From contig JBMNIW010000012.1 of the NCBI GenBank assembly GCA_050951325.1, positions 352,001 through 416,000 of the forward strand: 64,000 nt of DNA, in the 5' to 3' direction. Made by a program: the position numbers and the translations under genes. The notes under the pieces were generated by a model that worked only from the letters and a program-made list of their open reading frames with translations, was not told the DNA's origin and searched no databases. Positions 21,891 through 52,100 of the stretch are shown one piece after another (position 1 is the stretch's first letter; each line of letters starts with the position of its first letter). The stretch is from Clostridia bacterium (GTDB taxonomy: Bacteria; Bacillota; Clostridia; UBA1212; DUPL01).

Positions 21891-24011
21891 CTAATTCCCT
21901 TTCCAGTCGATACAAAGTATTTTAGATTGATATCCTCCCAATAAGAAGTTAACGGTCTGACTGTCATAATTAACAAATGTGTTTTCCAAAGGATCATAAA
22001 TTTTCAATTCACATTCCTTATTTATATCCACAGTTACATTAGTCTTATCCTTATTGGTGTTTACAAAAAAAACAACCCTGTCAAACCCAATCTTGACATT
22101 GTTCTTGGATTTTACTACAACTCCTCTGTTTGAGTCAATCTCGATGTCTTTACTTGTATTGTCTTTTATAGTCCTTGCAATATCTTCAATTTTATCCACA
22201 ATCATTACATTACTTTCTGTGGATAACTTTTCTATTTTCTCTTTTACCATTTCACTTGTTTCATGAAATATTATTGTTACTCCATCTTTTGCTAGATTAT
22301 CAAGCCTGTCATATAGAAAATCTGGAATGCTTAGTATTCTTGGAACGACAATATGTGAATATGTGATGCCTGATTCTGTAACAGCATTTGCATCCAAACA
22401 ATCAAACTCAACCTGATGGTTTAGAAGCTCATAAATTATCCCTCTCCAGCTCTCTTCCAGCTTTAATGCTCCAATACCGTATTCCCTTTGGTCAAGCTGA
22501 TTGTCTGAGCCTTTCGTTGATACCCAAACACTTTCAATGGGATAGTATATGGCTGTGGAAATCTCTTCACTTCCACCATCGAACATATTGCAAAGTCTTG
22601 CTACAAAGGTGTTGAAAATACGGTTCTCTTCATCAGTAATTACATTGTCGTTGTAATATGATGTAAATGTGTCCACACCTAAAGCAAACTGGGTTGCGCA
22701 AGAGCCTATCATCATTTGCAGGTCTATAGGCTTATTCGCTGCACCTTGCATATGTCCGGAAGCTTCTGTCATAACATGTTGTTTCTTATGCCATTTTGCA
22801 GAAGAACTTATGAGTTTTGGAGTTTGTGCCCATTTCAACACCTCTTCAGGTATTGTGGTCAGCATATCTATTCCCGGTATGCCCATTTTCCCAATCAGCC
22901 TAAACACATTTCCTTCATATATTCCATGATGCAGTATGTTTTCTTCAAGAAGCAAATGTCCTGAAAAATGTACATTGTTGTTTTCACAATAGTCGCCTAT
23001 TTGCTTGAAATATGCTTCATAGTACAAATCTGACAGTAAAGAATTGTAATCCAATCGAATCTTTTGGGCTTTATTATTTGTTCCTGCAAACAAATAGTGA
23101 AGATTATCATAAATGTCATATCCATATTTGGTAAAAAACTCATCTCTCACAAAAGTATCCCAATTAACAACAGGAAGTAGAGGTATGGAATCATCATATG
23201 GATCATCCACCCGGGGTGGATAAAGCCCTTTATTCAAATAACCTGCCATATAGGAAGGTTCATCGGTAAAGTAGGCTTCAATATGATTGCCGTACAAATC
23301 CCCTACTGATTTTGTATACTTTTCATATGTGTTTGAAATAAATTCTCTGACTGCATCTTTAGAAGCAACACTAATGTATCTTCTGGATGCATGCACATTG
23401 TGCTGTGCATGAGTTCCTTCGTATAGATGTTTCGTTTGGAAGTAACAGACAAGGGATGTTTCATTTGGTATATAGCAGAGAGTATGATTCTCGTCCAAAT
23501 ATCCGTCAAGACAGATCCTCTCCCCTATTATTGCATCCACATAGACATCTTCAGGCTTGGAAAGCAGCTCTTGATTATCCGATTCCTTTTTGCTTTCATT
23601 GATAGGAAAAGCATAAGCTGTGAGAAAATCATGATTCTTAGCCTTTTCAATGACAATCTCATCTCCTGAATTAACCTTTATGATAGTAGCACATAGTGCT
23701 TTCGCTTCATATTCATCATTTGCCTTTAATGTAAGTCCTCCTGCAGTACCGCTGGGATAGCCGAGTTCATCGTATATCCAGACTCTCATACCTATTTCCT
23801 TTGCATACCTCACAACTTGGCTGAAGGTATTCATGTATTCAGGATTTGACAAATAATCGTCAAAGGCTACGTTTGTGACGACACCTCCGTAGCCTTTGTT
23901 TTTCAAATCTGTCATTCTCTTTTTTGCATGATTAATATCCATGCAGAGATGGTGATCTATTTTTAATACTCTGTATATGTAATCAGGATTGCTTAATGAG
24001 ATTGTTTTCAT
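21891..24011 (-). CDS. Glycoside hydrolase family 106-like (alpha-L-rhamnosidase-like), cytoplasmic
   Basis: WIYDELGYPSGTAGG, FTDEP, SGHLLLEE, PGIDML, TEA; no signal peptide. Confidence 0.7.
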   Translation of the reverse strand: MKTISLSNPDYIYRVLKIDHHLCMDINHAKKRMTDLKNKGYGGVVTNVAFDDYLSNPEYMNTFSQVVRYAKEIGMRVWIYDELGYPSGTAGGLTLKANDEYEAKALCATIIKVNSGDEIVIEKAKNHDFLTAYAFPINESKKESDNQELLSKPEDVYVDAIIGERICLDGYLDENHTLCYIPNETSLVCYFQTKHLYEGTHAQHNVHASRRYISVASKDAVREFISNTYEKYTKSVGDLYGNHIEAYFTDEPSYMAGYLNKGLYPPRVDDPYDDSIPLLPVVNWDTFVRDEFFTKYGYDIYDNLHYLFAGTNNKAQKIRLDYNSLLSDLYYEAYFKQIGDYCENNNVHFSGHLLLEENILHHGIYEGNVFRLIGKMGIPGIDMLTTIPEEVLKWAQTPKLISSSAKWHKKQHVMTEASGHMQGAANKPIDLQMMIGSCATQFALGVDTFTSYYNDNVITDEENRIFNTFVARLCNMFDGGSEEISTAIYYPIESVWVSTKGSDNQLDQREYGIGALKLEESWRGIIYELLNHQVEFDCLDANAVTESGITYSHIVVPRILSIPDFLYDRLDNLAKDGVTIIFHETSEMVKEKIEKLSTESNVMIVDKIEDIARTIKDNTSKDIEIDSNRGVVVKSKNNVKIGFDRVVFFVNTNKDKTNVTVDINKECELKIYDPLENTFVNYDSQTVNFLLGGYQSKILCIDWKGN

Positions 24012-24016
24012 AATTT

Positions 24017-24649
24017 TTAGCCTAACAATTCAACAGCCGCTTCAGCTGCCGATGCAGCATCCGGACGATAGCAGTCAGCTCCTACTTCATTGCAGAAGTC
24101 CTGAGTAACAGGAGCTCCACCGATCATGATTTTCACCTTGTCTCTTATGCCCATTTCTTTTGCTTTTTCAACAATGGACTTAATGCTGACCATGGTTGTA
24201 GTAAGCAGAGCTGAACAAGCTATGATTTCTGCATTGTTGTCAATTGCAGCCTGAACAAACGTCTCCGCAGGAACATCGACACCCAGATCAATAACTTCAA
24301 GGCCTTTTCCTTCCATCATCATCTTGACAAGATTCTTGCCTATATCGTGCTGGTCACCGGCAACAGTGCCTATTACGACTTTTCCTTTAGCCTTTACGCC
24401 TGCTTCTGCCAAGTGTGGCTTTAAAATTTCCATTCCCATATTCATTGCTCTAGCTGCAACCAGTACCTCTGGAACGTATACCTCGTTATTCTTAAATTTA
24501 ACACCAATTATATCCATACCATGAAGCAGACCTTCTTGCAATATCTTGTCTGCTGCAATGCCAGCGTCAAGAGCTTCCTGTACCAATGTCTTTACGTTTT
24601 TAGCTCTGCCCTGCTGCAAATATGTGGATATTTCTTGTAAAATGTCCAA
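24017..24649 (-). CDS. Methyltransferase cognate corrinoid (B12-binding) protein
   Basis: YVPEVLVAARAM cap domain; DQHDIGKNLV (DxHxxG), SALLTTT, GGAP; TTG start after GGGGTG. Confidence 0.92.
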   Translation of the reverse strand: MDILQEISTYLQQGRAKNVKTLVQEALDAGIAADKILQEGLLHGMDIIGVKFKNNEVYVPEVLVAARAMNMGMEILKPHLAEAGVKAKGKVVIGTVAGDQHDIGKNLVKMMMEGKGLEVIDLGVDVPAETFVQAAIDNNAEIIACSALLTTTMVSIKSIVEKAKEMGIRDKVKIMIGGAPVTQDFCNEVGADCYRPDAASAAEAAVELLG

Positions 24650-24827
24650 TATTAACACCCCAATCGTTTTTTAAATTCTCATTCATTATTACACACCACA
24701 ATAGCTCTGTCAATAAATAAATTATACAAATGCGACATGTTTTTGTATTATATAAATATTTTTGATGCATATGTTAAGTTGACATAATTCCCATATTTTC
24801 TATACTTATATCTTGGAGGTGAAAAAG

Positions 24828-33948: not shown

Positions 33949-34147
33949 CTTCCAATTTTTTATAATGACTTAAGTTTACCATAATTTTATACCGCAAACA
34001 ATAGTAGTCTTCTGCTTTATATTCAAAAAGCCTTGTCTTTCGTATATAGTAAAGCAATGTGAATAAACAGGAAACATAATTAATATATTGACAAAATGTG
34101 TTGTATGAATATAATTATCTTAACAATTGTTAATGGAGGTTTTAAAT

Positions 34148-35110
34148 ATGTACAAGAGGTTATTTGCGTTTTGCGTTATCTTTGTAATGATTTTTTCACT
34201 AATGGCTGCAAACGCTGCAAAGCTTTCAGACCTTGATATGTCGAAGATAGAGCTTGTGAAAGAGTCTAAAATTGATGTGGAAAGCGTGTCGGTGGGTGCG
34301 GAATTCGGTAATCCACCAGCAGGATGGACATACCAGTTTGTGCTTGGTGAACAGCCAAAGATTGCAGAAGCGGATGGAAACAAGTATATTGCTTCAAATG
34401 GCTTCTGGCAGATGTTTCATGAACCAGTAGAAGAAAAGTACTACATGTTCTCTGTTGATGTCAAGGTATCAGGGAAACAAAACTTTGGTATTTTTGCAAG
34501 AGCCGGTAAAGAGAAGTTCCAATACGAGCTTAACATGTCAGACTTCTTTGAACAGGACAGATCCGGTGAGCATGATGGCCTTCAAGCACTTGGAGGAAGT
34601 GGAATGTATGTAAGGGTTGAAGGCAAAAAAGTTACTCTGTACATAAAGCTTTATGATGAGTCTCAGAAATGCGACATTAACAACAAGCTTTATGCCTTTG
34701 AGACAAATTATGATTTTTCAACCGGATTCCATACCATTACATTGGCTGATGATGGCAAAAACGTATATGTTGCTGTAGATGATGAAATTATTGCAAGAGT
34801 CAAGTTCTCAGATCCGAAGACTTATCCAATTGGTGAAGAGCAATACTATTCCAAGGTAGTTGTTTACGGTGGCGATGGCAGTGAGCTTGGCACTCATGAC
34901 AATGCATTGTTTGCCGTTAACAGCGTTGTAGCTATTGGTAACAGAAACAGTCCAACCAATTTTGACAATATCATTCTAAGGACATACAAGGACAAAGCTG
35001 ACAACCCACAGACATCTGATTCCGGTGTTGCTTTATTTGCTTTGACGGTTGCTTTTGGTATGGCAGTGGTTGTCTTTAAAGAAGAGGGTTTTTGCATAAG
35101 CCCGAGATGA
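34148..35110 (+). CDS. Secreted beta-rich surface protein with NPQTS sortase-like signal (unrecognised family, paralog 1)
   Basis: Signal peptide; NPQTSD then hydrophobic TM; shares motifs with 47540..48556 and 51048..52100; promoter TTGACA-16-TATAAT at 34088-34115. Confidence 0.7.
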   Translation: MYKRLFAFCVIFVMIFSLMAANAAKLSDLDMSKIELVKESKIDVESVSVGAEFGNPPAGWTYQFVLGEQPKIAEADGNKYIASNGFWQMFHEPVEEKYYMFSVDVKVSGKQNFGIFARAGKEKFQYELNMSDFFEQDRSGEHDGLQALGGSGMYVRVEGKKVTLYIKLYDESQKCDINNKLYAFETNYDFSTGFHTITLADDGKNVYVAVDDEIIARVKFSDPKTYPIGEEQYYSKVVVYGGDGSELGTHDNALFAVNSVVAIGNRNSPTNFDNIILRTYKDKADNPQTSDSGVALFALTVAFGMAVVVFKEEGFCISPR

Positions 35111-39937: not shown

Positions 39938-40987
39938 GTGAAAACAGAAATAATTAAAGTTGATCCTGAGAATATAGATGAGAAAATAATGAAATACTGT
40001 GGGGAAAAGATAAGGGAAGGAAAACTTGTCTGTTTCCCCACTGAAACTGTCTATGGGCTTGGAGCTAATGCTTTGGATGAAAAAGCTATTGAAGGAATAT
40101 TTACAGCTAAGGGAAGACCTCAGGACAACCCACTTATAGTTCACATTGCAGGCTATGACATGCTCGATGATATTGTGAAAACAACCCAAAGGGAAGAAAT
40201 CCTTTTAAGAAAATTAAGCGATAGGTTTTGGCCAGGTCCCTTGACATTGATTGTTACAAAAGATGAGTCCATGTCCGATGTGGTAACGAGTGGACTAAAT
40301 ACTGTAGGAGTCAGATATCCCTCAAACAGTATTGCACAAACCCTTATAAATTACGCTAATGTTCCCATCGCTGCACCCAGTGCAAATATATCGGGGAAAC
40401 CAAGTCCCACAAAGGCAAGTCATGTTATTCAGGATTTGACCGGCAAGGTGGATATTATTATTGATGGAGGGCCATGTCAGGTTGGTCTTGAGTCAACGGT
40501 TTTGGATATTGTATCCTGGCCTCCAATCATACTCAGACCTGGTGCTGTTACTCAAGAGGATATCAGCGAGGTTGTTATAGAGGTTTCCGAGCATGGATGG
40601 CAGAAGGAAGTGGACAAGCCAAGGTCTCCGGGAATGAAATACAAACACTATGCTCCTAATGCAAAAATAACAATTTATAAAGGTGAGGAAAGCAAGGTAG
40701 CAAGCCGGATTAAAGAGGAGTTAAAGAATGCAAATAATTTGGGTTTGAATGCATTTGTTCTTGCATCTGAAGAAACCCTTTGTTATTATAATAAAGAAAA
40801 AGCACTGTCCTTGGGAAGTAGGTACAATCCACTGGAACAAGCTTCAAGGCTTTATGACTGTTTGAGAAAATTTGATGAACTTAAAGCAGATGTGGTTTTT
40901 GCCGAAGCAATTGAAAACAAAGGCGTGGGCGATGCCATTATGAACAGGTTGTATAGAGCCGCCGGTGGCAGGTTGATTAGTATATAG
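39938..40987 (+). CDS. sua5: L-threonylcarbamoyladenylate synthase, Sua5 type
   Basis: FPTETVYGLG, KGRPQDNPLIVH, AAPSANISG, SPGMKYKHYAP. Confidence 0.95.
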   Translation: MKTEIIKVDPENIDEKIMKYCGEKIREGKLVCFPTETVYGLGANALDEKAIEGIFTAKGRPQDNPLIVHIAGYDMLDDIVKTTQREEILLRKLSDRFWPGPLTLIVTKDESMSDVVTSGLNTVGVRYPSNSIAQTLINYANVPIAAPSANISGKPSPTKASHVIQDLTGKVDIIIDGGPCQVGLESTVLDIVSWPPIILRPGAVTQEDISEVVIEVSEHGWQKEVDKPRSPGMKYKHYAPNAKITIYKGEESKVASRIKEELKNANNLGLNAFVLASEETLCYYNKEKALSLGSRYNPLEQASRLYDCLRKFDELKADVVFAEAIENKGVGDAIMNRLYRAAGGRLISI

Positions 40988-40997
40988 AGAAAGAGGT

Positions 40998-41489
40998 TTG
41001 ATTTTGAAGATTTTGTTTGTCTGTACCGGAAATACCTGTAGAAGCTACATGGCTGAAACATTACTAAAGGAGTATATAAGAAAGGCAGAAGAAAGCGACC
41101 TTATACCCCAAAACGCCATAAAGGTGGAGTCTGCAGGTTTGTTTGTGGTGGAGGACACTGCCAATAAAAAGGCTATCAGTGTTATGGAGGAAGAGTTTGG
41201 TATAAATACCGAGACGCATAGTGCCAGGCAAATAACACGAAAGCTTATTGAAGACAGTGACTTGATACTCACTATGACTAACGGACACAAGCGGGCAATT
41301 CTTGATACATACCCTGTATACAAGGGTAAAATATATACGCTGCTTGAATATGCTTTTCCTGAAGCAACTGTTGTTGATATTCAGGACCCTTACAGAGGAG
41401 ACAGACAGGACTATATTGAAAGTGCTGTGTCTATAAACAATGCTATCAAATCCATGTTTTACAAATTGATTGAAGAACTGGAGAAGTAG
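40998..41489 (+). CDS. Low-molecular-weight protein arginine/tyrosine phosphatase (YwlE-like)
   Basis: CTGNTCRS P-loop, DPY; conserved position after sua5. Confidence 0.88.
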   Translation: MILKILFVCTGNTCRSYMAETLLKEYIRKAEESDLIPQNAIKVESAGLFVVEDTANKKAISVMEEEFGINTETHSARQITRKLIEDSDLILTMTNGHKRAILDTYPVYKGKIYTLLEYAFPEATVVDIQDPYRGDRQDYIESAVSINNAIKSMFYKLIEELEK

Positions 41490-41503
41490 CAAATCTAAAG
41501 TAA

Positions 41504-42145
<642 letters not shown>

Positions 42146-42148
42146 AAT

Positions 42149-42175
42149 ATGATACCGGGAAACCGGTATCATTTT
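42149..42175. terminator. Terminator after upp
   Basis: ATGATACCGG-GAAA-CCGGTATCAT perfect stem. Confidence 0.8.
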
Positions 42176-42312
42176 GCATTTATTTTACTTTCCTTATCAA
42201 CATGGCAGGGTGCCGTTTGTTCTGTCTTTTTCTTCAGACATAAGCCATAAATCGAGCTGGGGTTTACCACTATATCCGTCTCGTCAGTTTAATCTAACTA
42301 ATCCGCTTTTTA

Positions 42313-43209
42313 TTAATGATTCTCTATTTCAACTTCAATACTTTCAAATATATCCACTATTTCCACTATTTTCTTTTTACTGAGCTCCTTTGTATTTTTA
42401 AATCCGTATTCCTGGTTTAAGGCATCATACTTGCCGCTTCCGAGTCTGTGGAAGGGCAGTATCGAAACCTTTGTAACACCCAGATTTTTAAGGGTTGTAT
42501 ATACGGTTCTCATTACTTCAACACTATCATTCACCTGCGGGATCAGAGGGATCCTTATTCTCACATCACAGCCCTTTGTAATCAGCTTTGCCAGGTTACT
42601 TATCACTAAATCATAATCACCAAACACATAATTATCATAAACATACCTGTCTCCCTTTATGTCATAGTAAAAGGTATCGGTATAGGGTATAACCTTCAGA
42701 AATTCAGCAAAAGGAACACAGCCTGCCGTATCAATGATCACATGGATATCCTTCTCCTTGCACATTTTGCTCAGTGCTTCCACAAAATCAGATTGAAGCA
42801 AAGGCTCTCCACCCGATATTGTAACTCCACCACCGGACTCCTGCATGTATTCATAATCCTTGTAGAGAGTATCAAACACTTCATCCACGGTCATGTATCT
42901 GCCTGAAAGTTTCAAAGCTTTTGTTGTACATGTCTTTTCACACATGCCACAAAAGTCACACTTGTCAACTTCCACAACATGTTCACCATCCTTAATAGAG
43001 TGAACACCTCTTGTGCAGACAATTTCACAAAGCCTACATTTTGCACATAGATTTTTATGAAACATCAGCCTTGGCTTTTGGGATATGGTCTCGGGATTAT
43101 GACACCAGGGGCACAAAAGATTGCACCCCTGCATAAACACAGTTGTCCTTATGCCCGGACCGTCTCCTAATGAAAAATGCTGTATATTGCTTATCAAACC
43201 CTTATCCAT
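42313..43209 (-). CDS. Glycyl-radical enzyme activating enzyme (radical SAM with ferredoxin insert)
   Basis: DGPGIRTTVF, CNLLCPWC (CxxxCxxC), CAKCRLCEIVC and CDFCGMCEKTC, SGGEP. Confidence 0.95.
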   Translation of the reverse strand: MDKGLISNIQHFSLGDGPGIRTTVFMQGCNLLCPWCHNPETISQKPRLMFHKNLCAKCRLCEIVCTRGVHSIKDGEHVVEVDKCDFCGMCEKTCTTKALKLSGRYMTVDEVFDTLYKDYEYMQESGGGVTISGGEPLLQSDFVEALSKMCKEKDIHVIIDTAGCVPFAEFLKVIPYTDTFYYDIKGDRYVYDNYVFGDYDLVISNLAKLITKGCDVRIRIPLIPQVNDSVEVMRTVYTTLKNLGVTKVSILPFHRLGSGKYDALNQEYGFKNTKELSKKKIVEIVDIFESIEVEIENH

Positions 43210-45364
43210 GTTCAGTCCTTCTTAATATGTCAAGCTTTACTTCGTTCGACAAAGAATTGTAGTATGCACTGAATCCCGACACCCTTACCACCAGATCAGT
43301 ATAATTCTCAGGATTCTTCATTGCATCAATAAGTATTTCTTTTGATACCGCATTTATCTGAATCTCCTGACCGCCATTCTTTAAATACACCTTTATCATG
43401 TCAAGCAGTTTCTTCCTTTTCACCGGATCCGTGAACATATTCCTTGTGTACTTCTGATTAACAACCGTTCCACAGGACACTTTGGTGTAATCCGGCTTGG
43501 TAAGGGACTTTAGAGCCAATGTAGGACCATGCACATCTCTTCCATATACGGGAGAGGCAGCATCACTAAGAGGTTCTCCATCCCTTCTTCCATCGGGAGT
43601 AGCTGCAATCTCCATACCAGCATATATATTACTAATATTTGCAGCAATGGCAATATAGAAGGCACCGCCATCATGGGTTTTGTATTTGGAGAATATCTCA
43701 TAATGCACATTTACGAACCACTTGGCGTATTTGTCTACAAAATCATCATCGTTTCCATATTTGGGAGCTGACAAAACCTTTGCCAAAACTTCTTCATATC
43801 CTTCAAAATTATTCAGTATTGCTTCTTTAAGAAGCGAAAGGTCAATCTCCCTTTTGTTGTAAACAAACATCTCAACAGCGGCCAAAGAGTCTGCAAAGGT
43901 TCCAATGCCCATGCATGCAGCACCATGGACAGACGGATACAAAGCTCCGCCATCATTTATGTCAAGACCTCTTTCAATACACGGATAGCAGAAACAGGAC
44001 AAAAACGGCTGCATGTAGTTGTATGTATTGTATCTTTCATTTTCATTCTTGAACATTCTGACATACATGGCCGCACCGTGTTCCAACTGCTTTCTCAATG
44101 CATGAAGAAAATCATCCATGGTCTTCAACTCGGAAACATCCCCCGTTGAAGGCCCAAGGCGCACGCCCGTATGCATGCACACCCCATTGTTAAGAACAAG
44201 CTCTATATACTTGGGTGAGTTGAATCTTCCATCCGACCAGGGCGGTTGTTTGCCTGGGATGAAGTTTTCTATACAGCCTACCATGCAGTAATCCCTTGCA
44301 TCTTCAAGGGAATATCCGTGCTTTAATAGTGCAGGGATATTTACATCATCGTTCATAAGAGCAGGATATCCGAGTCCTGTTCCTATGACCTTGAGACACT
44401 CATCAAGGAATTCATCGGGTATACCGCTGTATATTCTTGCAGACAGATTAGGTCCAGGGATATTGCATCTTTTTACTGCTTCAAGAATAACGTAGGAGAG
44501 TTCATTGACTCCGCCGCTCCCGTCTCTCTTTACTCCGCCTATTGCAATATTAACAACATCGTCTCCGCCGAAATATCTTACTTCCCCTATTTTATACAAA
44601 GTGCATGCAACCAGATCGATTGCTTCTTCTTTGCTTAATCTTTTTTCTACTATATCCTTAATATAGAAAGGATATAGATATTGATCCAGACGGCCGAGAG
44701 CCATTGCTCCTCTGCCTTCATAGAAAAATGCTATATATGTAAACCATACAAGCTGCAGAGCTTCCTGAAATGATGAAGGCTTCGCAAAGGATATCTTCCT
44801 GCAAACATCATGCACTTTCATAAGGCTTCTGTACTTTTCAGAATCCTCACTGAATTTCTTCGCTCTGTTCAAAGCTGCCTCTGCATATTGAAGGATCATT
44901 TGGCTAAAGGCCTTCATAGTAATTTCAGCAGATTCCAGAAAGACCATTTTCTTTTTGGAGTCCGGGTCATCCTTGTGAACAATCTTCGATTTTTCTATCT
45001 TCTCAAGAGTCCCCCCAATACCATCCGCAAGGAATGTATTGTAGTCAGGTGCATAATGATCCGCATTTGTTACAAAGGATCTTAAACCATAGCTTGCAAC
45101 AATACCTGTGCAGTGGTTCAGATAGGCCTGATCTATTTCGTCATCTATAAGGCCTCTGACTGTTCCTGCAATCAGATCATTGTCATATACATATTTTTTA
45201 TGTTTAGTAAACAGGGATGCAATCGCATAGGCCTTTGCTACAGGAACCTCACAGTCCAGGTGGTCTCTATAGCCTTCGTACATATATGCAAAGGTTACTT
45301 TTCTGGAGCTGTTGGGTTTCTTTTCTGCGATCTCCTGTTTCAGACAATCCAGTTTATTCGTCAC
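43202..45364 (-). CDS. Glycyl radical enzyme of unknown substrate (PFL2/dehydratase-like class)
   Basis: Gly loop LVVRVSGFSAY; Cys loop VGCIE; GRLDQYLYP, PKYGNDD, ATPDGR. Confidence 0.92.
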   Translation of the reverse strand: MTNKLDCLKQEIAEKKPNSSRKVTFAYMYEGYRDHLDCEVPVAKAYAIASLFTKHKKYVYDNDLIAGTVRGLIDDEIDQAYLNHCTGIVASYGLRSFVTNADHYAPDYNTFLADGIGGTLEKIEKSKIVHKDDPDSKKKMVFLESAEITMKAFSQMILQYAEAALNRAKKFSEDSEKYRSLMKVHDVCRKISFAKPSSFQEALQLVWFTYIAFFYEGRGAMALGRLDQYLYPFYIKDIVEKRLSKEEAIDLVACTLYKIGEVRYFGGDDVVNIAIGGVKRDGSGGVNELSYVILEAVKRCNIPGPNLSARIYSGIPDEFLDECLKVIGTGLGYPALMNDDVNIPALLKHGYSLEDARDYCMVGCIENFIPGKQPPWSDGRFNSPKYIELVLNNGVCMHTGVRLGPSTGDVSELKTMDDFLHALRKQLEHGAAMYVRMFKNENERYNTYNYMQPFLSCFCYPCIERGLDINDGGALYPSVHGAACMGIGTFADSLAAVEMFVYNKREIDLSLLKEAILNNFEGYEEVLAKVLSAPKYGNDDDFVDKYAKWFVNVHYEIFSKYKTHDGGAFYIAIAANISNIYAGMEIAATPDGRRDGEPLSDAASPVYGRDVHGPTLALKSLTKPDYTKVSCGTVVNQKYTRNMFTDPVKRKKLLDMIKVYLKNGGQEIQINAVSKEILIDAMKNPENYTDLVVRVSGFSAYYNSLSNEVKLDILRRTEHG

Positions 45365-45366
45365 TT

Positions 45367-46461
45367 TTATTCACCTACTAAAATGGTCTTTATATTCTTT
45401 GCAGCCTTAATATCCTCAAACGCTTCATTTACCTTACTTACCGGATATTCTGTTATCATCGAGTCAATAACAGGATGAAGTCCCGGATTTTCCTCAAGGA
45501 ATTCAAGATAGCTTATAACATCAGAAACGGAATACTGGGATGAGCCTATTATCTGAATAGCTTTAAATGTTATAAGTTCAGGATTAAACATAACACCGCC
45601 GCTTGCAGAATACTGTCCGGGTACTAAATATACGCCTCTGTTTCTGAGCATCTGTATACCCTGGGGCACTGCATGCACATTTCCGCTTGCTTCAAACACT
45701 AAATCAGCTCCGAGTCCGTCACTTATGCTTTTTATATATGCTATTACATCATCAAGTGAGTTAATATCAAGAGAAAATACTTTACTTACACCGAAGCTTC
45801 TTGCAATCTCTTCTCTTTTTTCATCCACAAATCCTGTTATTGCAATAACATGCTCAATACCCATAGCAACCAGATATCCTGCTGCAAACATACCAACAGG
45901 TCCTAATCCCTGTACTACGGCCACATTAACATTTTCCATGCTAACATTCGCACGTTTGCCTAAATTAAAAGCATGTATTGCAGTTGAACCTGCACAGGCA
46001 AATACACTTACAGTCTTAGGATCCAGACCCTTTGGTACTTTAATCAGGTTCTTTACAGGTGAATAGTTAACTTCAGCATAGCCACCCCAGAAATGAGGGC
46101 TTTCCTCAGGATCTCCGCCATTTGTAACACCCATATTGATGCAGTTTGCATCATCACTGGTTTTACAAAGCAGGCATTCACCACAGGGGCATGCAATGTT
46201 TACAATAACATTGTCGCCTGCACTAATACCATATTTATTGCTGTCTTCAGCTGATATCTCTTCTACTTTTCCAACATACTCATGTCCGATTATCTTAGGA
46301 GGGACAATCCCAAGCTTTCCTCTGTGTATGTGCATATCCGTGCCACATACTCCGCTTGCTAATATAGAAATCCTTGCATATCCCTTTGGTGGAGTCGTAA
46401 GCTCATACTCACGGATCTCAAAAGGTTCATTTACTCCTGTAAACACAGCTGCCTTTGCCAT
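45367..46461 (-). CDS. Zinc-dependent medium-chain dehydrogenase
   Basis: GVCGTDMH, GHE, structural Zn CGEC..C.......C, QGLGPVG. Confidence 0.92.
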   Translation of the reverse strand: MAKAAVFTGVNEPFEIREYELTTPPKGYARISILASGVCGTDMHIHRGKLGIVPPKIIGHEYVGKVEEISAEDSNKYGISAGDNVIVNIACPCGECLLCKTSDDANCINMGVTNGGDPEESPHFWGGYAEVNYSPVKNLIKVPKGLDPKTVSVFACAGSTAIHAFNLGKRANVSMENVNVAVVQGLGPVGMFAAGYLVAMGIEHVIAITGFVDEKREEIARSFGVSKVFSLDINSLDDVIAYIKSISDGLGADLVFEASGNVHAVPQGIQMLRNRGVYLVPGQYSASGGVMFNPELITFKAIQIIGSSQYSVSDVISYLEFLEENPGLHPVIDSMITEYPVSKVNEAFEDIKAAKNIKTILVGE

Positions 46462-46473
46462 ATTTTTTCTCCT

Positions 46474-47349
46474 TTATACTTTTATTTTATGAATCAGCTT
46501 ATATTCCTGGGTGCTGTAACCCGTGTATTTTTTAAATAAGCGGCTTAAGTAGGGCTCGTTATATAAGCCGACCTTTTCTCCTGCTTCTTTAAGTGACATA
46601 TTGTAAACCAGTATCATCTCCGCTACTCTTTTGATCCTGTAGCTGTTAATATATTCTACTACTGTTTTACCTGTAAAGATCTTGAATATCTTACACAGGT
46701 AGCCTGTTGATATACCGAGATAGGATGCAATATCATTTGTAGATATATTCTCCTTTATGTTCTCCGCAATATAACCGATGGCCTTCTTACTGTATAATGA
46801 ATATATTGGCATCGGGGTAAGGTCATACTTTAATCTTGCGATGCGTACTGATTCTGCGGTTATCATTGAAAAGAGGTTAAATAGTCCTGATATAAAGTAT
46901 GTTTTATCTGAATTTATATCTGTCTCAAATTCTTTTATAAGTTTTTTCATTGCAACGGTTATCTTTTCTACCTGCATACCGCTGGGCATTTCCGATGCAA
47001 CAATCAAAAACACTCCTGGCCGGTTATTTGCCTTACTTATTTCAATTACTTCATCCTCAGTGATCTGCTCAAGCTCATAGGGTACATTAACTGAAATAGT
47101 CGCATGACCATGTCCGGGATTATCCGAATATGCTTTAAGTGGCTTATTATGAGGTATAATATTTAATCCTCCTTCTTGGATTATATATGTATGATCCTCA
47201 TATTGAATATTCATTTTTCCTCTTTCACACAGAACAATTTCAAAGGCATTAGGTATTACACCAAAATTAAAGTTGTACCTGTCCGTTGAAAAGAAATGGG
47301 CAAATTCAATTAACGGTATATTCTTAAAAGTATATATATTAAAGTGCAT
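46474..47349 (-). CDS. AraC-family transcriptional regulator
   Basis: N-terminal cupin; C-terminal double HTH (GISTGYLCKIFK, YLSRLFKKYTG); promoter TTGATA-17-TATAAT on minus strand at 47412-47384. Confidence 0.92.
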   Translation of the reverse strand: MHFNIYTFKNIPLIEFAHFFSTDRYNFNFGVIPNAFEIVLCERGKMNIQYEDHTYIIQEGGLNIIPHNKPLKAYSDNPGHGHATISVNVPYELEQITEDEVIEISKANNRPGVFLIVASEMPSGMQVEKITVAMKKLIKEFETDINSDKTYFISGLFNLFSMITAESVRIARLKYDLTPMPIYSLYSKKAIGYIAENIKENISTNDIASYLGISTGYLCKIFKIFTGKTVVEYINSYRIKRVAEMILVYNMSLKEAGEKVGLYNEPYLSRLFKKYTGYSTQEYKLIHKIKV

Positions 47350-47489
47350 ACCTAAACGTCCCTCCTTGTTATTCTATAAGGCAATTATATCTTTTATCCC
47401 TTTTGCTATCAATGAACTATTTTAATTTATGTGCACAATTTTAATTCATTATGCCAATTTCAGTGAATAACTATACAACTTTTAAAAGC

Positions 47490-47523
47490 AAAAAAGCTAT
47501 ACACCTTTTTAGATGTATAGCTT
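47490..47523 (-). terminator. Terminator of the surface-protein operon
   Basis: AAGCTATACA/TGTATAGCTT stem with minus-strand U-tract. Confidence 0.7.
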
Positions 47524-47539
47524 CATTTTTTTTGTTCAG

Positions 47540-48556
47540 TTAAACATTGTATAATTTTTTCTTAAAAACAAGGCTCAATAAAGCTCCGGCTGTTAATAGG
47601 GCAAAAACACTGTACAAACTAGCATTATCTCCTGTTTCTGTATTCGGTTCAGTATATGCAGCATACTCGCGTAATGAAACGCTGTTAACAGCATAGTTGC
47701 TGATACGGAGTGCAATAAGGGGTACGCTGAAATCCTTGCTGAGAAGAACATTATCCACATTCCTCAGTACATTTCCTGCACTGTCTTTTACTACTACCGA
47801 TTTAAAGAACTTATTTGCACTTAAATCAGGATAAGTTGCTTCACCGGACATCTCAACTGATGCAAATTTCTGTTCATCAACAAAGAAATTTAAAACAGAT
47901 CCGTCATCGGTCATTGTGATCTTGTGATAAGCACTTCCGAAATCTACACCCTCAAGCTTTATATCGATCCTTTCATTAGCCAGTTTAGTTTCAAGGTTAT
48001 CTCTATAAACTTTAACATATATGCTAATAATGTCAGAACCCCAGCCTCCGGGTACAAGGAAAATCCCTGATGAACCCATATGTACGTTACTTGACCAGTC
48101 GGACAGATCGTGGGAGTAGAAGGCAATTACTTCTCCGTTACCTATTGTAAAGTGTTCTCCGGTAGTTCTTACAAACATCCCAAAGCACTGACCTGTACCT
48201 TTTCCTTCGATTTCAAATATGTATCTGTTAGTTAATTTGTACTTGGAAACCATCTGGGTAAAAGGACCAAAGTTTACAGCCTTTTGACCTCCGTCCATAA
48301 ATACTGTCATGTTATGAGTCGGTTCTCCGCTTCCTCTTTCCAATACCCAGTGGTCTTCGATGTTTGCCTGTCCAACAAGGCTTTCGCCGTCGGGCAGATC
48401 TTCAAAATCATCCATTAAAACATCGATACCCTTTGTTCCATTAATGAGTTCACCCCATGTTCCAAGATGAGTGTCCAGATCGCTTGCCTGTACGCTAAAA
48501 GTCATGGCTATCGATAGCATAAACACACTCACAATTGTAATTACTCGTTTACACAT
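47540..48556 (-). CDS. Secreted beta-rich surface protein with sortase-like PNTETG signal (paralog 2)
   Basis: Signal peptide (VQA); NTETGD, TM, KKK tail. Confidence 0.72.
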   Translation of the reverse strand: MCKRVITIVSVFMLSIAMTFSVQASDLDTHLGTWGELINGTKGIDVLMDDFEDLPDGESLVGQANIEDHWVLERGSGEPTHNMTVFMDGGQKAVNFGPFTQMVSKYKLTNRYIFEIEGKGTGQCFGMFVRTTGEHFTIGNGEVIAFYSHDLSDWSSNVHMGSSGIFLVPGGWGSDIISIYVKVYRDNLETKLANERIDIKLEGVDFGSAYHKITMTDDGSVLNFFVDEQKFASVEMSGEATYPDLSANKFFKSVVVKDSAGNVLRNVDNVLLSKDFSVPLIALRISNYAVNSVSLREYAAYTEPNTETGDNASLYSVFALLTAGALLSLVFKKKLYNV

Positions 48557-48590: not shown

Positions 48591-51029
48591 TTACTTTTTC
48601 TTTTTTCTCCTAATTGTATCTGAGATCAATAATCCGATTGCACCGGCAAAAAGCAGTGAAGAAACCAGGATAACTATAAACATAGTAGATACCTGAAATG
48701 TGTGCTTTCCATTTGCAGGTGTGAATACAAAAGTAAATCTTCCGTCAGGTGCTGCTTCTCCGTCTGTATAGAAGGACAATATATCACCGTCACTGCAATT
48801 ATTATCCGCCCACTTAAAGTACAGATGGGGTTTGCCGCCCTCCTGACCAATGGCACTGCGCGGTACTGCTAATGTCATTACATTGTTTTTGATGTAATAT
48901 TTTGCTTTACCTGTTTCTTCCCAGTTCCAGCCTCCAGTACTTTTCACGATGGTGCTGTAACCATTTTCCGGGGAAGTTATATTCACTGCATAGTCAAAAC
49001 CTTCCCAGCTCTTATCCAGGCTCATGTTTTTCGTGCTAATGAATAAACGCATCCAGTCCGGATCTTTAGGATCAGTTAAATTATTTAAAGTCTCTACGTA
49101 GAAATATATGTAATCCTTATCATAAATCACTTTGGATACAACAACATCGTTACGAACACCTTTGTTTGTGTAGTGTGTATCTCCGTAGCCGTCTTCATCC
49201 CTGTCTTCAGCATATCCAACATAGTGGGTATATGCATAGGCTTTATTAAAAGCTTTTATGTTAGTTATATCTATTGTCTTGTATGTATATGTTATATCAG
49301 GTTTGCTTACACCTTTGTATTTTCTGATATTGGAGATCAGCTGATAATAGTAGTTATCCTTCAGATCACCTTTAGTCGGTTCAACATCCCTTGAATACTC
49401 ATCTGTAAATACGTCGGGGAAAGCATTTTCAGTATATCCCCAGTCTTCATGTCTGCTTGCCTGCCATTCATTCCATCCGGTAACAAATATGAGGTCAGGA
49501 TTTACTTCAATTGCATAATCCCATTGCTCCTGAAAGTTGATCCCATAGTATTTCGAGTTGGGATCTGTAGAGAAGCCGTTTATCATAGAAAAGCTTCTTC
49601 CATAGACATCTATACCATTCATTGCTGTACCGCCGTACAGGGCATTTGCATTCTGTGCAACTCCAACAGTGATCTGTTCAACAGTTCCGTCAGGTCTTAC
49701 ACCGTATTTGCACTGTGGATAAACGGATAACCATCCCCAGTAAGTGCTGTGGGCAGGCTTCGTTGTAAAGTATGACGGGTCACAGGGTCTGAAGGTAAAG
49801 AAATCAAGCATTTCTTTAAATAACGGATCAGACTGCTGACCCAGTATCTCGGGGTATGCCATAACAAGGGGCTTACCTTCCCAATAGAACCACAGGTCCT
49901 GGTAATTTCCACTCCTGTATATGTCAAGATAAAGGTTGTACATCATCTCAGCAGTTGCAACAAAAGGCGCAAAGTTCAGCATAAATGCTATTTTAGGAGT
50001 GTTGACACCTGCCTGCCTTGCTTCTGCAAAGGCTTCAAGCAATGTTGTATAACCACCGCGCCAGGTGTAGTTTGCGTTTGTACAGTCAAATACAATAACA
50101 TCAACACCTGCATTTGCAAGCATTTCAGCATGCTTACGGTATACATATTTATCTAAAGATGTGTAGTAACCGTATAGCGGTTCATCCCAGAAATATGCGG
50201 CTGCCTTTTGCTCATACCATATCCTGTGCTTATAGTCATTCTTAGCCTCAGGATACTGCTTCATCAGATTTGTTAAGTTGATGGGCATACCTTCTATTTC
50301 AAAGTAATCATGAGCGATCCAGTAGAACATAGCCACATATTTGTTTTTCTTGCTGCTACCTACAGCCTCATAATCCGGTAACTCTCTTCCCAGAGCATCG
50401 ATTGCATGCCATGTTTCCGGTTTTACATTACGTTGGTTGATCGGATGATCCTTCGGTAATTTTGGTTCCCTGGGATCACTGACCTTTTCCGGTTCCTTTT
50501 CTTTTGATAAAGGAGCAAGGCTAGTTGAAGGTTCACCGTCGTATGTTATCTTCATCGAGATATTTCCAAGTCCTTTATACCCATTCGTATAAGTTACTGT
50601 ATGCTCAATATGGGTCCTGGTCTGACTAACCCCTATCCTTCCTTTAACATAATATACAACTGCAAGATATTCACCTTTTTCGGCTTCAACATTAAGGTTC
50701 AGCCATCTGTTGCCTAATACATCTTTAAAATCCTCTACTGCAACCGGCGCTGAGGATACGGTCTTTGAATAGCTTTCGTCCCATTTATACAGGGCGATCC
50801 TGCAGTCCTTTGTTGCACCAAAAGTTGTTATGTACACACTTACACGGGTTAGTTTATCAGTTGCGTTGAACCTTGTTCCGGCAGATCCATTCTTCTCGAT
50901 ATTGAAGTCACTCTTATCTCCTGTTGTATTGTAGAGGTTTATTGTGCTTCCTGATTTTGAATATATGACAGAACAGGAAAGTGCAAGACCCATAATAACG
51001 AAAAGGAATATCAGATATCGTTTTCTCAT
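48591..51029 (-). CDS. Surface GH99/GH71-like glycoside hydrolase with extra N-terminal beta domain
   Basis: VAMFYWIAH, EPLYGYY, HAEMLANAGVD, FVTGWNEW, DEYSRDVEP; C-terminal TM plus RRKKKK. Confidence 0.65.
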   Translation of the reverse strand: MRKRYLIFLFVIMGLALSCSVIYSKSGSTINLYNTTGDKSDFNIEKNGSAGTRFNATDKLTRVSVYITTFGATKDCRIALYKWDESYSKTVSSAPVAVEDFKDVLGNRWLNLNVEAEKGEYLAVVYYVKGRIGVSQTRTHIEHTVTYTNGYKGLGNISMKITYDGEPSTSLAPLSKEKEPEKVSDPREPKLPKDHPINQRNVKPETWHAIDALGRELPDYEAVGSSKKNKYVAMFYWIAHDYFEIEGMPINLTNLMKQYPEAKNDYKHRIWYEQKAAAYFWDEPLYGYYTSLDKYVYRKHAEMLANAGVDVIVFDCTNANYTWRGGYTTLLEAFAEARQAGVNTPKIAFMLNFAPFVATAEMMYNLYLDIYRSGNYQDLWFYWEGKPLVMAYPEILGQQSDPLFKEMLDFFTFRPCDPSYFTTKPAHSTYWGWLSVYPQCKYGVRPDGTVEQITVGVAQNANALYGGTAMNGIDVYGRSFSMINGFSTDPNSKYYGINFQEQWDYAIEVNPDLIFVTGWNEWQASRHEDWGYTENAFPDVFTDEYSRDVEPTKGDLKDNYYYQLISNIRKYKGVSKPDITYTYKTIDITNIKAFNKAYAYTHYVGYAEDRDEDGYGDTHYTNKGVRNDVVVSKVIYDKDYIYFYVETLNNLTDPKDPDWMRLFISTKNMSLDKSWEGFDYAVNITSPENGYSTIVKSTGGWNWEETGKAKYYIKNNVMTLAVPRSAIGQEGGKPHLYFKWADNNCSDGDILSFYTDGEAAPDGRFTFVFTPANGKHTFQVSTMFIVILVSSLLFAGAIGLLISDTIRRKKKK

Positions 51030-51047: not shown

Positions 51048-52100
51048 TTATTTTTCTTTTGTTCTTCTTACGATTATAAATATTATTACACCTAAGGAAA
51101 CGGCTCCGACTGCTGCGAAGACAATTATCAGCGGATCAACAGAAGCTTTATCTGTATTATTAGTTCCGCTCTTTGTTGCTGTAGGATTTACCTTTGGAGT
51201 CGCAGTTTCTTCAGGAGCAGCAGTTGCCTCCGGTGTTGGTGTTGGATCCGGTTCTTCATATTCAAGGATAATGTTATCGACCTGAGTAATTGTTTCTCTG
51301 TTGCCGATTGCAATAGTGGATCCGTTAGATGATACTCTCGTATTTTCAACAGTATAAAGGACATTATCATCTTTATCCTTTACGGTTACTGTCTTGAAAT
51401 ATTCATCAGAATCGTTTGTATCAGTATCATATTTGATGCCTGTACCTGACATCTCAACTTTTGCGATCAGGGTGCTGTTTGCATAAATTTCAACTTTGCT
51501 TTCCCCGTCATCTACAAACTTCAGGTTTACAAAAGCACTTGCAGGAAACTCAAAAGGAATGTCTGTGGTCTTCTGAGTTATGGTCATTGCTTCTTCTGTG
51601 TATATTTTTGTTATTACTCTTATTACATTTGGCAATAAGGTAACTGCTATACCGCTTGCTCCGAGACCGCTTGGTCCTGAACCACCGTTTTGTGAATACC
51701 AGTCTGACTCATAAAAGGGTACTACACTATCACCGCTGAATACACCGTTATAGAACAAATTCTCAGGTCTTACCGCTCTTACAAAAATTGCGTGATTTTC
51801 GTTCAGGTCAGTCTTCTTAACATCAATGGAGAATGTATAGGGTCCTACTATAGGATTAATTAAGAAGCTATCTGAATACCCAGAATACTCCAGATACTGA
51901 TTATTTGCCTCACTGACTACTTTAATTTCACCTATCAGGCTTGATGTTTCAAACAGCTCATATAGTTCTGTATCAAGCATAGTAGTCCCTTCATTATCGC
52001 TTTCAAAGTCAAATTTCTCTTCTACTTTGATTCCAAATACATTTAAGCATAATGAAATATTAAGTAGTAGGATTACTGCTATTATCATTATTTTTTTCAC
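51048..52100 (-). CDS. Secreted beta-rich surface protein with PT-linker and C-terminal TM anchor (paralog 3)
   Basis: Signal peptide, GTG start after AGGAGG, EPDPTPTPEAT linker, TM, RRTKEK. Confidence 0.72.
   Translation of the reverse strand: MKKIMIIAVILLLNISLCLNVFGIKVEEKFDFESDNEGTTMLDTELYELFETSSLIGEIKVVSEANNQYLEYSGYSDSFLINPIVGPYTFSIDVKKTDLNENHAIFVRAVRPENLFYNGVFSGDSVVPFYESDWYSQNGGSGPSGLGASGIAVTLLPNVIRVITKIYTEEAMTITQKTTDIPFEFPASAFVNLKFVDDGESKVEIYANSTLIAKVEMSGTGIKYDTDTNDSDEYFKTVTVKDKDDNVLYTVENTRVSSNGSTIAIGNRETITQVDNIILEYEEPDPTPTPEATAAPEETATPKVNPTATKSGTNNTDKASVDPLIIVFAAVGAVSLGVIIFIIVRRTKEK

Follow-up and report, generated by a model that had tools for sequence, protein, structure and literature searches.

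A compact glycyl radical enzyme of an uncharacterised eliminase-type clade, encoded with a zinc alcohol dehydrogenase in a four-gene operon of a Clostridia bacterium

In a 64,000-nucleotide stretch of contig JBMNIW010000012.1 from a Clostridia bacterium (assembly GCA_050951325.1), referred to as the window, four consecutive minus-strand genes encode an AraC-family regulator, a zinc-dependent medium-chain alcohol dehydrogenase, an oxygen-sensitive glycyl radical enzyme (GRE) and the radical S-adenosylmethionine (SAM) activase of the latter (Table 1). We found this operon to be real and intact, and its GRE to be a member of a common but uncharacterised eliminase-type clade in the glycerol-dehydratase-like family, whose members are compact and often sit beside the same type of dehydrogenase.

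The four-gene unit and its compact enzyme

An earlier reading made from the letters of the window (the sequence-only reading) had described four coupled genes, a compact 720-residue GRE with an RVSGF glycine loop and a single-cysteine GCIE loop, and a context free of genes for microcompartments, a phosphotransferase system (PTS), an aldolase, pyrroline-5-carboxylate (P5C) reductase or sulfonate transport. Each of these descriptions was recovered: the open reading frame (ORF) coordinates were reproduced exactly, as were the spacings in the order AraC-dehydrogenase-GRE-activase (12 nt, 2 nt and an 8-nt overlap), our own read of the protein agrees on its length and loops, and Pfam scans of ~20 kb on each side returned none of the listed context genes. 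A domain search likewise found no bacterial microcompartment (BMC) shell domains in the genome, which is 96% complete. The unit is preceded by TTGATA-17-TATAAT, the best promoter-like site of the region, where the total number of such sites equals the shuffled expectation; an AAGGAGG ribosome-binding site sits between it and the AraC ATG, and another, AGGTGA, lies 8 nt ahead of the GTG start of the GRE.

At full word share, the stretch is found in DNA assemblies that bear the labels anaerobic digester, biogas fermenter or bioreactor; six metatranscriptomic runs, drawn from five studies, contain it as well. In two of these runs, each from a different biogas-fermenter study, RNA-library contigs tile positions 40801-47362 at an identity of at least 99%, and one of these contigs (44243-47362) spans the GRE, dehydrogenase and AraC genes; X17 and X20 leave parts of the stretch uncovered. 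The X15 and X16 contigs end at 47362 and 47295, just downstream of the promoter-like site, and RNA-library contigs resume at 47533-47618 (X15 and X17 at 47533/47534), at or past the upstream terminator, leaving the gap between promoter and terminator uncovered. These contig ends hint weakly at a genuine transcript whose 5' end is the predicted one, and the operon is probably expressed. Contigs of three runs also break at 42794 in the activase gene (with a long loose end) and at 44243-44272 in the GRE gene, probably at an assembly branch point that arises from the 84%-identical paralogue described below or from a strain variant.

Table 1. Positions of the operon, its signals and other genes in the window
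Feature	Position	Strand	Basis or remark
AraC-family regulator, 291 aa, first gene of the unit	46474-47349	minus	ORF + Pfam
Zn-dependent medium-chain alcohol dehydrogenase, 364 aa	45367-46461	minus	ORF + Pfam (ADH_N, ADH_zinc_N)
Compact GRE, 720 aa, GTG start	43202-45364	minus	ORF + Pfam
GRE activase (radical SAM), 298 aa	42313-43209	minus	ORF + Pfam/NCBIfam
Promoter-like site TTGATA-17-TATAAT, ~35 nt 5' of the AraC ATG	47384-47412	minus	11/12 matches
Terminator-like hairpin, 14 pairs; closes the 338-aa gene upstream; 5' limit of the unit	47493-47524	minus	
Bidirectional terminator-like hairpin, 10-bp stem, between the activase gene and convergent upp	42149-42172	both	
338-aa protein	47540-48556		related to the 350- and 327-aa proteins
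350-aa protein	51048-52100		related to the 338- and 327-aa proteins
327-aa protein	34127-35110		related to the 338- and 350-aa proteins
812-aa protein	48591-51029	minus	no Pfam family
Protein of the 812-aa family	12550-14640	plus	no Pfam family
B12-binding-domain protein (213 aa), then 706-aa protein	21891-24658	minus	706-aa protein with faint GH106-like match

The GRE contains the PFL-like domain (PF02901, 469.6 bits) and the Gly_radical domain (PF01228, 90.3 bits), with C364 and E366 in the cysteine loop VGCIENF and G697 in the glycine loop VVRVSGFSAYY. Both residues of the Cys-x-Glu (CxE) motif are kept in 117/117 relatives, the set over which conservation was counted, and so is H103, which aligns with His164 of glycerol dehydratase (GD) and His160 of HypD; G697 within RVSGF is invariant. 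The short length is genuine, with the dehydrogenase stop codon 2 nt upstream of the GRE start and with the relatives being of similar length and having a conserved N-terminus. Relative to GD, a MAFFT alignment places the missing residues mainly in two deletions, ~56 residues before the loop of the catalytic His and ~11 before strand beta-3, which on this alignment account for most of the compactness. An AlphaFold (AF2) model built from 69 sequences (mean predicted local distance difference test score, pLDDT, 94; predicted template-modelling score, pTM, 0.93) superposes in a fold search on all eliminase-type GREs with template-modelling (TM) scores of ~0.9 (0.91-0.92 for GD, propanediol dehydratase (PD), CutC and HypD) at no more than 30% identity.

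Placement of the enzyme and conservation of its partners

The 720-aa GRE fails the cut-offs of every CHARACTERISED GRE family among the NCBIfam equivalogs, reaching 416 bits against a cut-off of 1100 for HypD (NF043068), 404 against 1050 for CutC (TIGR04394), 385 against 1000 for HpfG (NF048009), 352 against 1000 for HpsG, 348 against 1109 for the PflD type (NF007437) and 143 against 994 for pyruvate formate-lyase (PFL; TIGR01255), and the PFL2/glycerol-dehydratase subfamily model TIGR01774 is not reached either (464 versus 678 bits). When the GRE was compared with the sequences of solved structures, GD scored best at 388 bits, followed by CutC (366), the 1,2-propanediol dehydratase 9RCO (348), Roseburia PD (337) and HypD (325), with lower scores for YbiW/PflD (~295), IseG (267) and IslA (249). 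Proteins that are 56-84% identical to the GRE fill at least 120 clusters (90% identity level); they are mostly 704-735 aa long, stem from Clostridia metagenome bins (gut, digester) and are unnamed or bear generic names only. The compact clade was found in 25 of the 59 related genomes searched.

In a maximum-likelihood tree of 45 rows, the 26 rows from the compact clade come out as one monophyletic group (SH-aLRT 100; stem length 0.84 changes per site), which falls outside the GD orthologue L096 (1426 bits to 1R8W), two HypD equivalogs, the PflD equivalogs, E. coli YbiW, PflD and PflB, and eight other TIGR01774 proteins. PD enters the tree only through L089 and L090, two putative PD proteins of the GD branch, and CutC and the sulfonate lyases, absent from the tree, are set apart by the score tables only. 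For the clusters that could be tested, NCBIfam, the sequences of the Protein Data Bank (PDB), the fold search and the tree thus bear out the proposal of the sequence-only reading that the GRE lies outside the characterised clusters, and its further implication that the enzyme is not a true PFL holds as well, given the lack of a Cys-Cys pair and the TIGR01255 score. Parts of a 2026 review (PMC13450708) describe the CxE motif as common to CutC, IslA, HpsG, HplG, YbiW and PflD, and whole GRE clades as still without experimental validation. The terms 'alcohol dehydrogenase', 'zinc' and 'AraC' each have 0 occurrences in PMC13450708, and our literature search found no characterised GRE with a zinc alcohol dehydrogenase partner.

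Gene neighbourhoods were compared at 45 loci, comprising 17 from named contigs of metagenome-assembled genomes and 28 from the related-genome search, with the window operon and its paralogue included. The dehydrogenase stands beside the GRE at 30 of the 45, the activase at 27 and a homologous AraC regulator at 12; in the 25 related genomes the dehydrogenase is present at 21 of 26 loci, at 3 the contig breaks off, and the last 2 lack it. This conserved adjacency backs the functional link between GRE and dehydrogenase that had been suggested from the window. The gene order is mostly GRE-activase-dehydrogenase, the window operon and its paralogue having dehydrogenase-GRE-activase. At one locus (L013, 7974-12469), two tandem clade GREs of 725 and 730 aa have no adjacent activase or dehydrogenase and adjoin a 942-aa glycerophosphodiester-phosphodiesterase-domain protein and ABC-transporter genes.

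In 21 partner dehydrogenases the seven zinc ligands, catalytic (C39, H60, C156) and structural (C93, C96, C99, C107), are all invariant. The catalytic Cys-His-Cys site is of the alcohol/aldehyde type and would fit the reduction of a product. The best solved relative is 1vj0 (TM0436), a Thermotoga zinc alcohol dehydrogenase of unknown role (147 bits), and no NCBIfam equivalog was reached, the best match being the phosphonate-catabolism-associated alcohol dehydrogenase (129 versus a cut-off of 328 bits). The regulator has a C-terminal HTH_AraC domain (52 bits) and a weak N-terminal cupin-like domain (AraC_binding, 19.4 bits, under the cut-off); it reached no NCBIfam equivalog, and the solved-structure search returned no informative relative of its ligand domain, the helix-turn-helix part alone being matched.

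The activase carries the radical-SAM motif CNLLCPWC (C29-x3-C33-x2-C36) and, at residues ~55-94, a ferredoxin-like insert of two motifs (CAKCRLCEIVC and CDFCGMCEKTC); it is assigned Radical_SAM plus Fer4 motifs by Pfam and reaches TIGR02494 of NCBIfam (296.6 bits versus a cut-off of 174). The two ferredoxin-type motifs singled out by the sequence-only reading are therefore present in the window, but they are not a feature of the clade: of 18 partner activases, 4 have the full insert, 13 have none and that of L069 has a partial one. The insert therefore belongs to the window lineage and not to the compact clade. The short form of ~255 aa without the insert comes from L012, L014, L065-L068, L071-L074 and L078-L080, and the ~300-aa form with the two-cluster insert from the window, L028, L003 and L064.

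The assembly (3.08 Mb, 12 contigs) holds four PFL-like genes, all with a CxE loop and none with Cys-Cys. One of them belongs to a second operon of the same kind on contig C1 (131585-135718; locus L028, 10585-14718), in which a dehydrogenase of 361 aa, a GRE of 722 aa and an activase of 296 aa share 64%, 84% and 74% identity, respectively, with their counterparts in the window. It is flanked by genes for a UPF0047 protein, an F5/8-type-C protein and an 815-aa member of the 812-aa family that also occurs in the window. Since the C1 GRE pairs in the tree with a protein from another source and not with the window copy (support 99), the duplication is not recent. The remaining two are CxE-type GREs with activases, at C5 210455-213663 (L030) and C8 155217-158218 (L029); one of them, of 769 aa, adjoins GH28 and rhamnogalacturonase-like genes, and the other, a compact 703-aa protein with a GCWE loop, is also without the N-terminal segment and adjoins a CoA-disulfide-reductase-like rhodanese fusion. 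Neither reached any NCBIfam model at E<=1e-150.

Putative pocket, proposed reaction and candidate substrates

We mapped a putative active-site pocket by aligning the GRE to GD, CutC and a HypD equivalog (6VXC numbering) and in the 45-row MAFFT alignment; for the GD contacts other than Cys433, Glu435 and His164, and for the CutC residues, the roles are ones that we presume. Asp378, at the position of GD Asp447, is kept in 117/117 relatives, and Arg380, which aligns with HypD Tyr450 and CutC Tyr506, in 116/117. Ala220 stands in place of GD Ser282, Ala574 in place of GD Tyr640, and Val270 in place of GD Tyr339, CutC Phe395 and HypD Phe340; Asp269 aligns with HypD Asp339, Ser377 with CutC Thr502 and Asn576 with HypD Thr645, and the loop of HypD Ser334 is deleted in the compact GRE. 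Position 219, which aligns with GD His281 and HypD Asp278, is Tyr in 107/117 relatives and Gly in the window copy. Because two aromatic side chains are lost, with small residues at the Ser282, Tyr339 and Tyr640 positions, and Asp268/Asp269, Ser377, Asp378, Arg380 and Asn576 are invariant, the aligned pocket suggests a ligand that exceeds glycerol or propanediol in size and polarity. The roles of the HypD pocket residues are those given in parts of PMC7077986, and those of GD Cys433, Glu435 and His164 follow parts of PMC13450708.

Among 115 other relatives, 286 alignment columns show conservation of at least 90%; the window GRE departs from its kin at 12 of them, and 8 of these 12 departures, including S575A on a pocket strand, are common to the C1 paralogue. 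The change of Tyr219 to Gly is the only radical one at a putative contact position and is unique to the window copy; the Gly219 codon is matched by RNA-library contigs of two runs. As the C1 GRE has Tyr at position 219, a difference in specificity would be expected, and the two paralogous operons probably differ in this respect.

The closest characterised system is the B12-independent GD of Clostridium butyricum (DhaB1 with activase DhaB2 and the 1,3-propanediol dehydrogenase DhaT; PDB 1R8W/1R9D), which is the best match (TM 0.91, 30% identity) and shares with the compact GRE the CxE loop and the equivalents of His164 (H103) and Asp447 (D378), as well as a locus that combines GRE, activase and alcohol dehydrogenase without a microcompartment. 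Unlike GD, the compact GRE is ~65 residues shorter, lies outside the GD branch, adds Arg380 and Asn576, and has Ala for Ser282, Tyr (Gly here) for His281, Val for Tyr339 and Ala for Tyr640; its operon includes an AraC regulator, and its dehydrogenase is a zinc medium-chain enzyme, whereas we take DhaT to be an alcohol dehydrogenase of the iron type. PD (Roseburia inulinivorans 5I2G; 9RCO) superposes with a TM score of 0.92 at 28-29% identity and has the eliminase triad in common with the compact GRE, and the PD-like L089 has the same Ala at the GD Ser282 position, but the other pocket positions differ, the clades are separate, and microcompartment genes are found neither at our locus nor in the genome.

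Among the other eliminases, HypD (6VXC) shares the CxE loop, the His160 equivalent and Asp269 at the HypD-specific Asp339, but differs in Asp278 (Tyr/Gly in the compact GRE), Phe340 (Val), Tyr450 (Arg) and Thr645 (Asn), and no P5C reductase gene lies near the operon. CutC (5FAU; TM 0.91) has the CxE loop in common, but has Phe395, Thr502 and Tyr506 where the compact GRE has Val, Ser and Arg, its microcompartment genes have no counterpart here, and it presumably has Asp216 in place of His103. The substrate contacts of GD, HypD and CutC are thus not kept, and in the tree the GRE does not group with GD or HypD. The DHPS (2,3-dihydroxypropane-1-sulfonate) dehydratase HpfG, compared by score only, follows a shared logic in which a GRE dehydratase is followed by reduction of the aldehyde by a downstream reductase, but no sulfonate transporter is found here. 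The isomerases YbiW and PflD (1,5-anhydrohexitol-6-phosphate) have the CxE loop and the His in common with the compact GRE and act on sugar-derived substrates according to parts of PMC13450708; they occupy separate branches of the tree, and the window is without the PTS and fructose-6-phosphate aldolase genes seen at the E. coli loci.

We consider it probable, though far from certain, that the operon is a self-contained unit under AraC control in which the compact-clade GRE carries out a radical 1,2-elimination, a dehydration being the likeliest form, and the dehydrogenase reduces the resulting carbonyl. By analogy with GD, PD and HypD, the activase would install a radical on Gly697 and Cys364 would take a hydrogen from a hydroxyl-bearing carbon; Glu366 would then deprotonate that hydroxyl, and His103 would protonate the vicinal leaving group, most simply water, in line with the CxE/His mechanism outlined in sections 5.6 and 5.7 of PMC13450708. 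The carbonyl product would be reduced by the co-encoded Cys-His-Cys zinc alcohol dehydrogenase, regenerating NAD(P)+. We favour this sequence of abstraction, elimination and reduction because the full set of Gly, Cys, Glu and His is present together with a zinc dehydrogenase of the aldehyde/ketone type.

Several observations weigh against the proposed operon function. In a subgroup of loci (L005-L008, L011 and L016), the GRE has neither activase nor dehydrogenase nearby and adjoins a nucleotidyltransferase and glycan genes, and at the loci examined no transporter, kinase or other pathway enzyme is conserved beside the module. The RNA-library contigs may contain DNA and cannot prove a single transcript, and the pocket derives from sequence alignment, in which the register at residues 218-220 is ambiguous by 1-2 residues across alignments.

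The substrate is most likely a polar hydroxylated compound, as judged from the aligned pocket, and a hydroxylated product of plant-glycan breakdown is a plausible source; that it belongs to the sugars, polyols or cyclitols and that the radical chemistry is new, as the sequence-only reading had proposed, are hypotheses that we retain as such. Because no transporter, kinase or pathway enzyme is conserved beside the module, the context gives no indication that the substrate is large or charged. Neighbouring genes were rejected as a guide to the substrate, since beyond GRE, activase, dehydrogenase and AraC they differ by locus. Those that recur are suggestive only: a SASA esterase at 3 loci (in L012 and L065 its gene follows that of the dehydrogenase and is translationally coupled to it, and in the window it lies 5 kb upstream), a GDSL esterase at 2 (inside the operon in L001 and L015), Gfo/Idh/MocA oxidoreductases at 5 and the 812-aa family at 7, along with rhamnosidase-like genes that recur near the module. 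In a tentative extension of the proposal, the GRE would cleave a C-O bond of an unphosphorylated sugar-derived polyol, deoxy-sugar or cyclitol and the partner dehydrogenase would re-reduce the carbonyl, such that dehydration and reduction could alternate and strip successive hydroxyls, the Tyr219 and Gly219 operons having diverged for two related substrates released by the acetyl-esterases of this digester bacterium and its very large set of GH99/GH71-like hydrolases.

The main rival, which we regard as rather doubtful, is a dehydratase of 1,2-propanediol (from rhamnose or fucose via L-lactaldehyde) or of glycerol that works without a microcompartment, with the zinc dehydrogenase reducing propanal or 3-hydroxypropanal, and perhaps lactaldehyde, as an electron sink. 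The gene set follows the same logic as that of GD with its activase and a 1,3-propanediol dehydrogenase. No solved structures are nearer than GD and PD, the His, Cys, Glu and Asp447 equivalents are kept, and the Ala found in place of GD Ser282 (Ala220) also occurs in PD-like L089; a membrane-permeant substrate would moreover explain the lack of a conserved transporter. Against such a small diol stand the position of the clade outside the GD/PD branch on a long stem and a pocket unlike both the polar GD site and that of PD-like L089, in which GD Tyr339, Tyr640 and His281 have given way to Val, Ala and Tyr (Gly in the window), and Arg380 and Asn576 have been added. The rhamnose route is also suggested by the genome, which has RhaA and no BMC shell genes, by the rhamnosidase-like and SGNH or SASA esterase genes that recur near the module, and by the occurrence of RhaA in 24/25 clade-positive versus 19/34 clade-negative related genomes (kin, and hence not independent), but this link is confounded by phylogeny, the counts within the order being 24/24 versus 14/20, with several of the negatives being incomplete genomes.

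That the enzyme instead cleaves a C-N or C-S bond, or works as an isomerase, on a hydroxylated compound with a charged group (for instance an amino alcohol, a hydroxy acid, a sulfonate or a phosphonate) appears improbable. In this case Arg380 and Asp268/Asp269 would hold the charge and the dehydrogenase would handle the carbonyl, and the range of enzymes that share the CxE motif (in parts of PMC13450708), the placement of Arg380 at the substrate-contacting HypD Tyr450 and CutC Tyr506 and of Asp269 at HypD Asp339, and the phosphonate-associated model as best match of the dehydrogenase, far under its cut-off, are consistent with it; however, the scans of the loci revealed no conserved charged-substrate transporter and no genes for sulfite or amine handling, His103 is of the dehydratase type, and the CutC, HpsG and HpfG scores are below half of the cut-offs. 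That the gene encodes a PFL or an inactive relic is highly improbable, and PFL activity itself is effectively excluded: although relatives carry generic names such as 'formate C-acetyltransferase' and 'pyruvate formate lyase family protein', the loop has a single Cys in CxE and TIGR01255 is far from being reached, while the frame is intact, all catalytic residues are present, only the 12 conserved columns noted above deviate, and RNA-library contigs cover the operon.

Other genes of the window and significance

The 812-aa protein encoded upstream of the operon has a second family member in the window (Table 1) and paralogues at more than 50 further places in the genome by tblastn. The family is very large and unannotated, with 1991 matches at E<=1e-3 among the candidates scored, and a few relatives carry dockerin, CBM9 or GH99 domains. 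An AF2 model (pLDDT 90) has a helix at each terminus and, between them, a TIM barrel framed by two beta-sandwiches; the barrel is only distantly like GH99 endo-alpha-mannosidases and GH71 (TM ~0.5 on the target, 13-15% identity). The 7 loci with family members near a clade GRE come from at least 5 genomes; we rejected the 812-aa neighbour as a specific partner, since with more than 50 paralogues in a 3.1-Mb genome its adjacency may be chance. The 812-aa gene upstream of the operon is flanked by the mutually related 338-, 350- and 327-aa proteins, each with ~10 weak paralogues in the genome; for these three, and for an upstream 305-aa protein, no Pfam family was found even at E=1.

GRE eliminases underlie anaerobic conversions of environmental and medical importance, such as the formation of trimethylamine, hydrogen sulfide and 1,3-propanediol and the use of hydroxyproline, and once a substrate is assigned to the compact clade, anaerobic carbohydrate or alcohol metabolism would gain a further reaction. 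The fixed dehydrogenase partner offers a ready-made NAD(P)H-coupled assay, the compact size may ease handling in the laboratory, and the natural Tyr/Gly pair at position 219 of the two paralogous operons constitutes a built-in specificity experiment.

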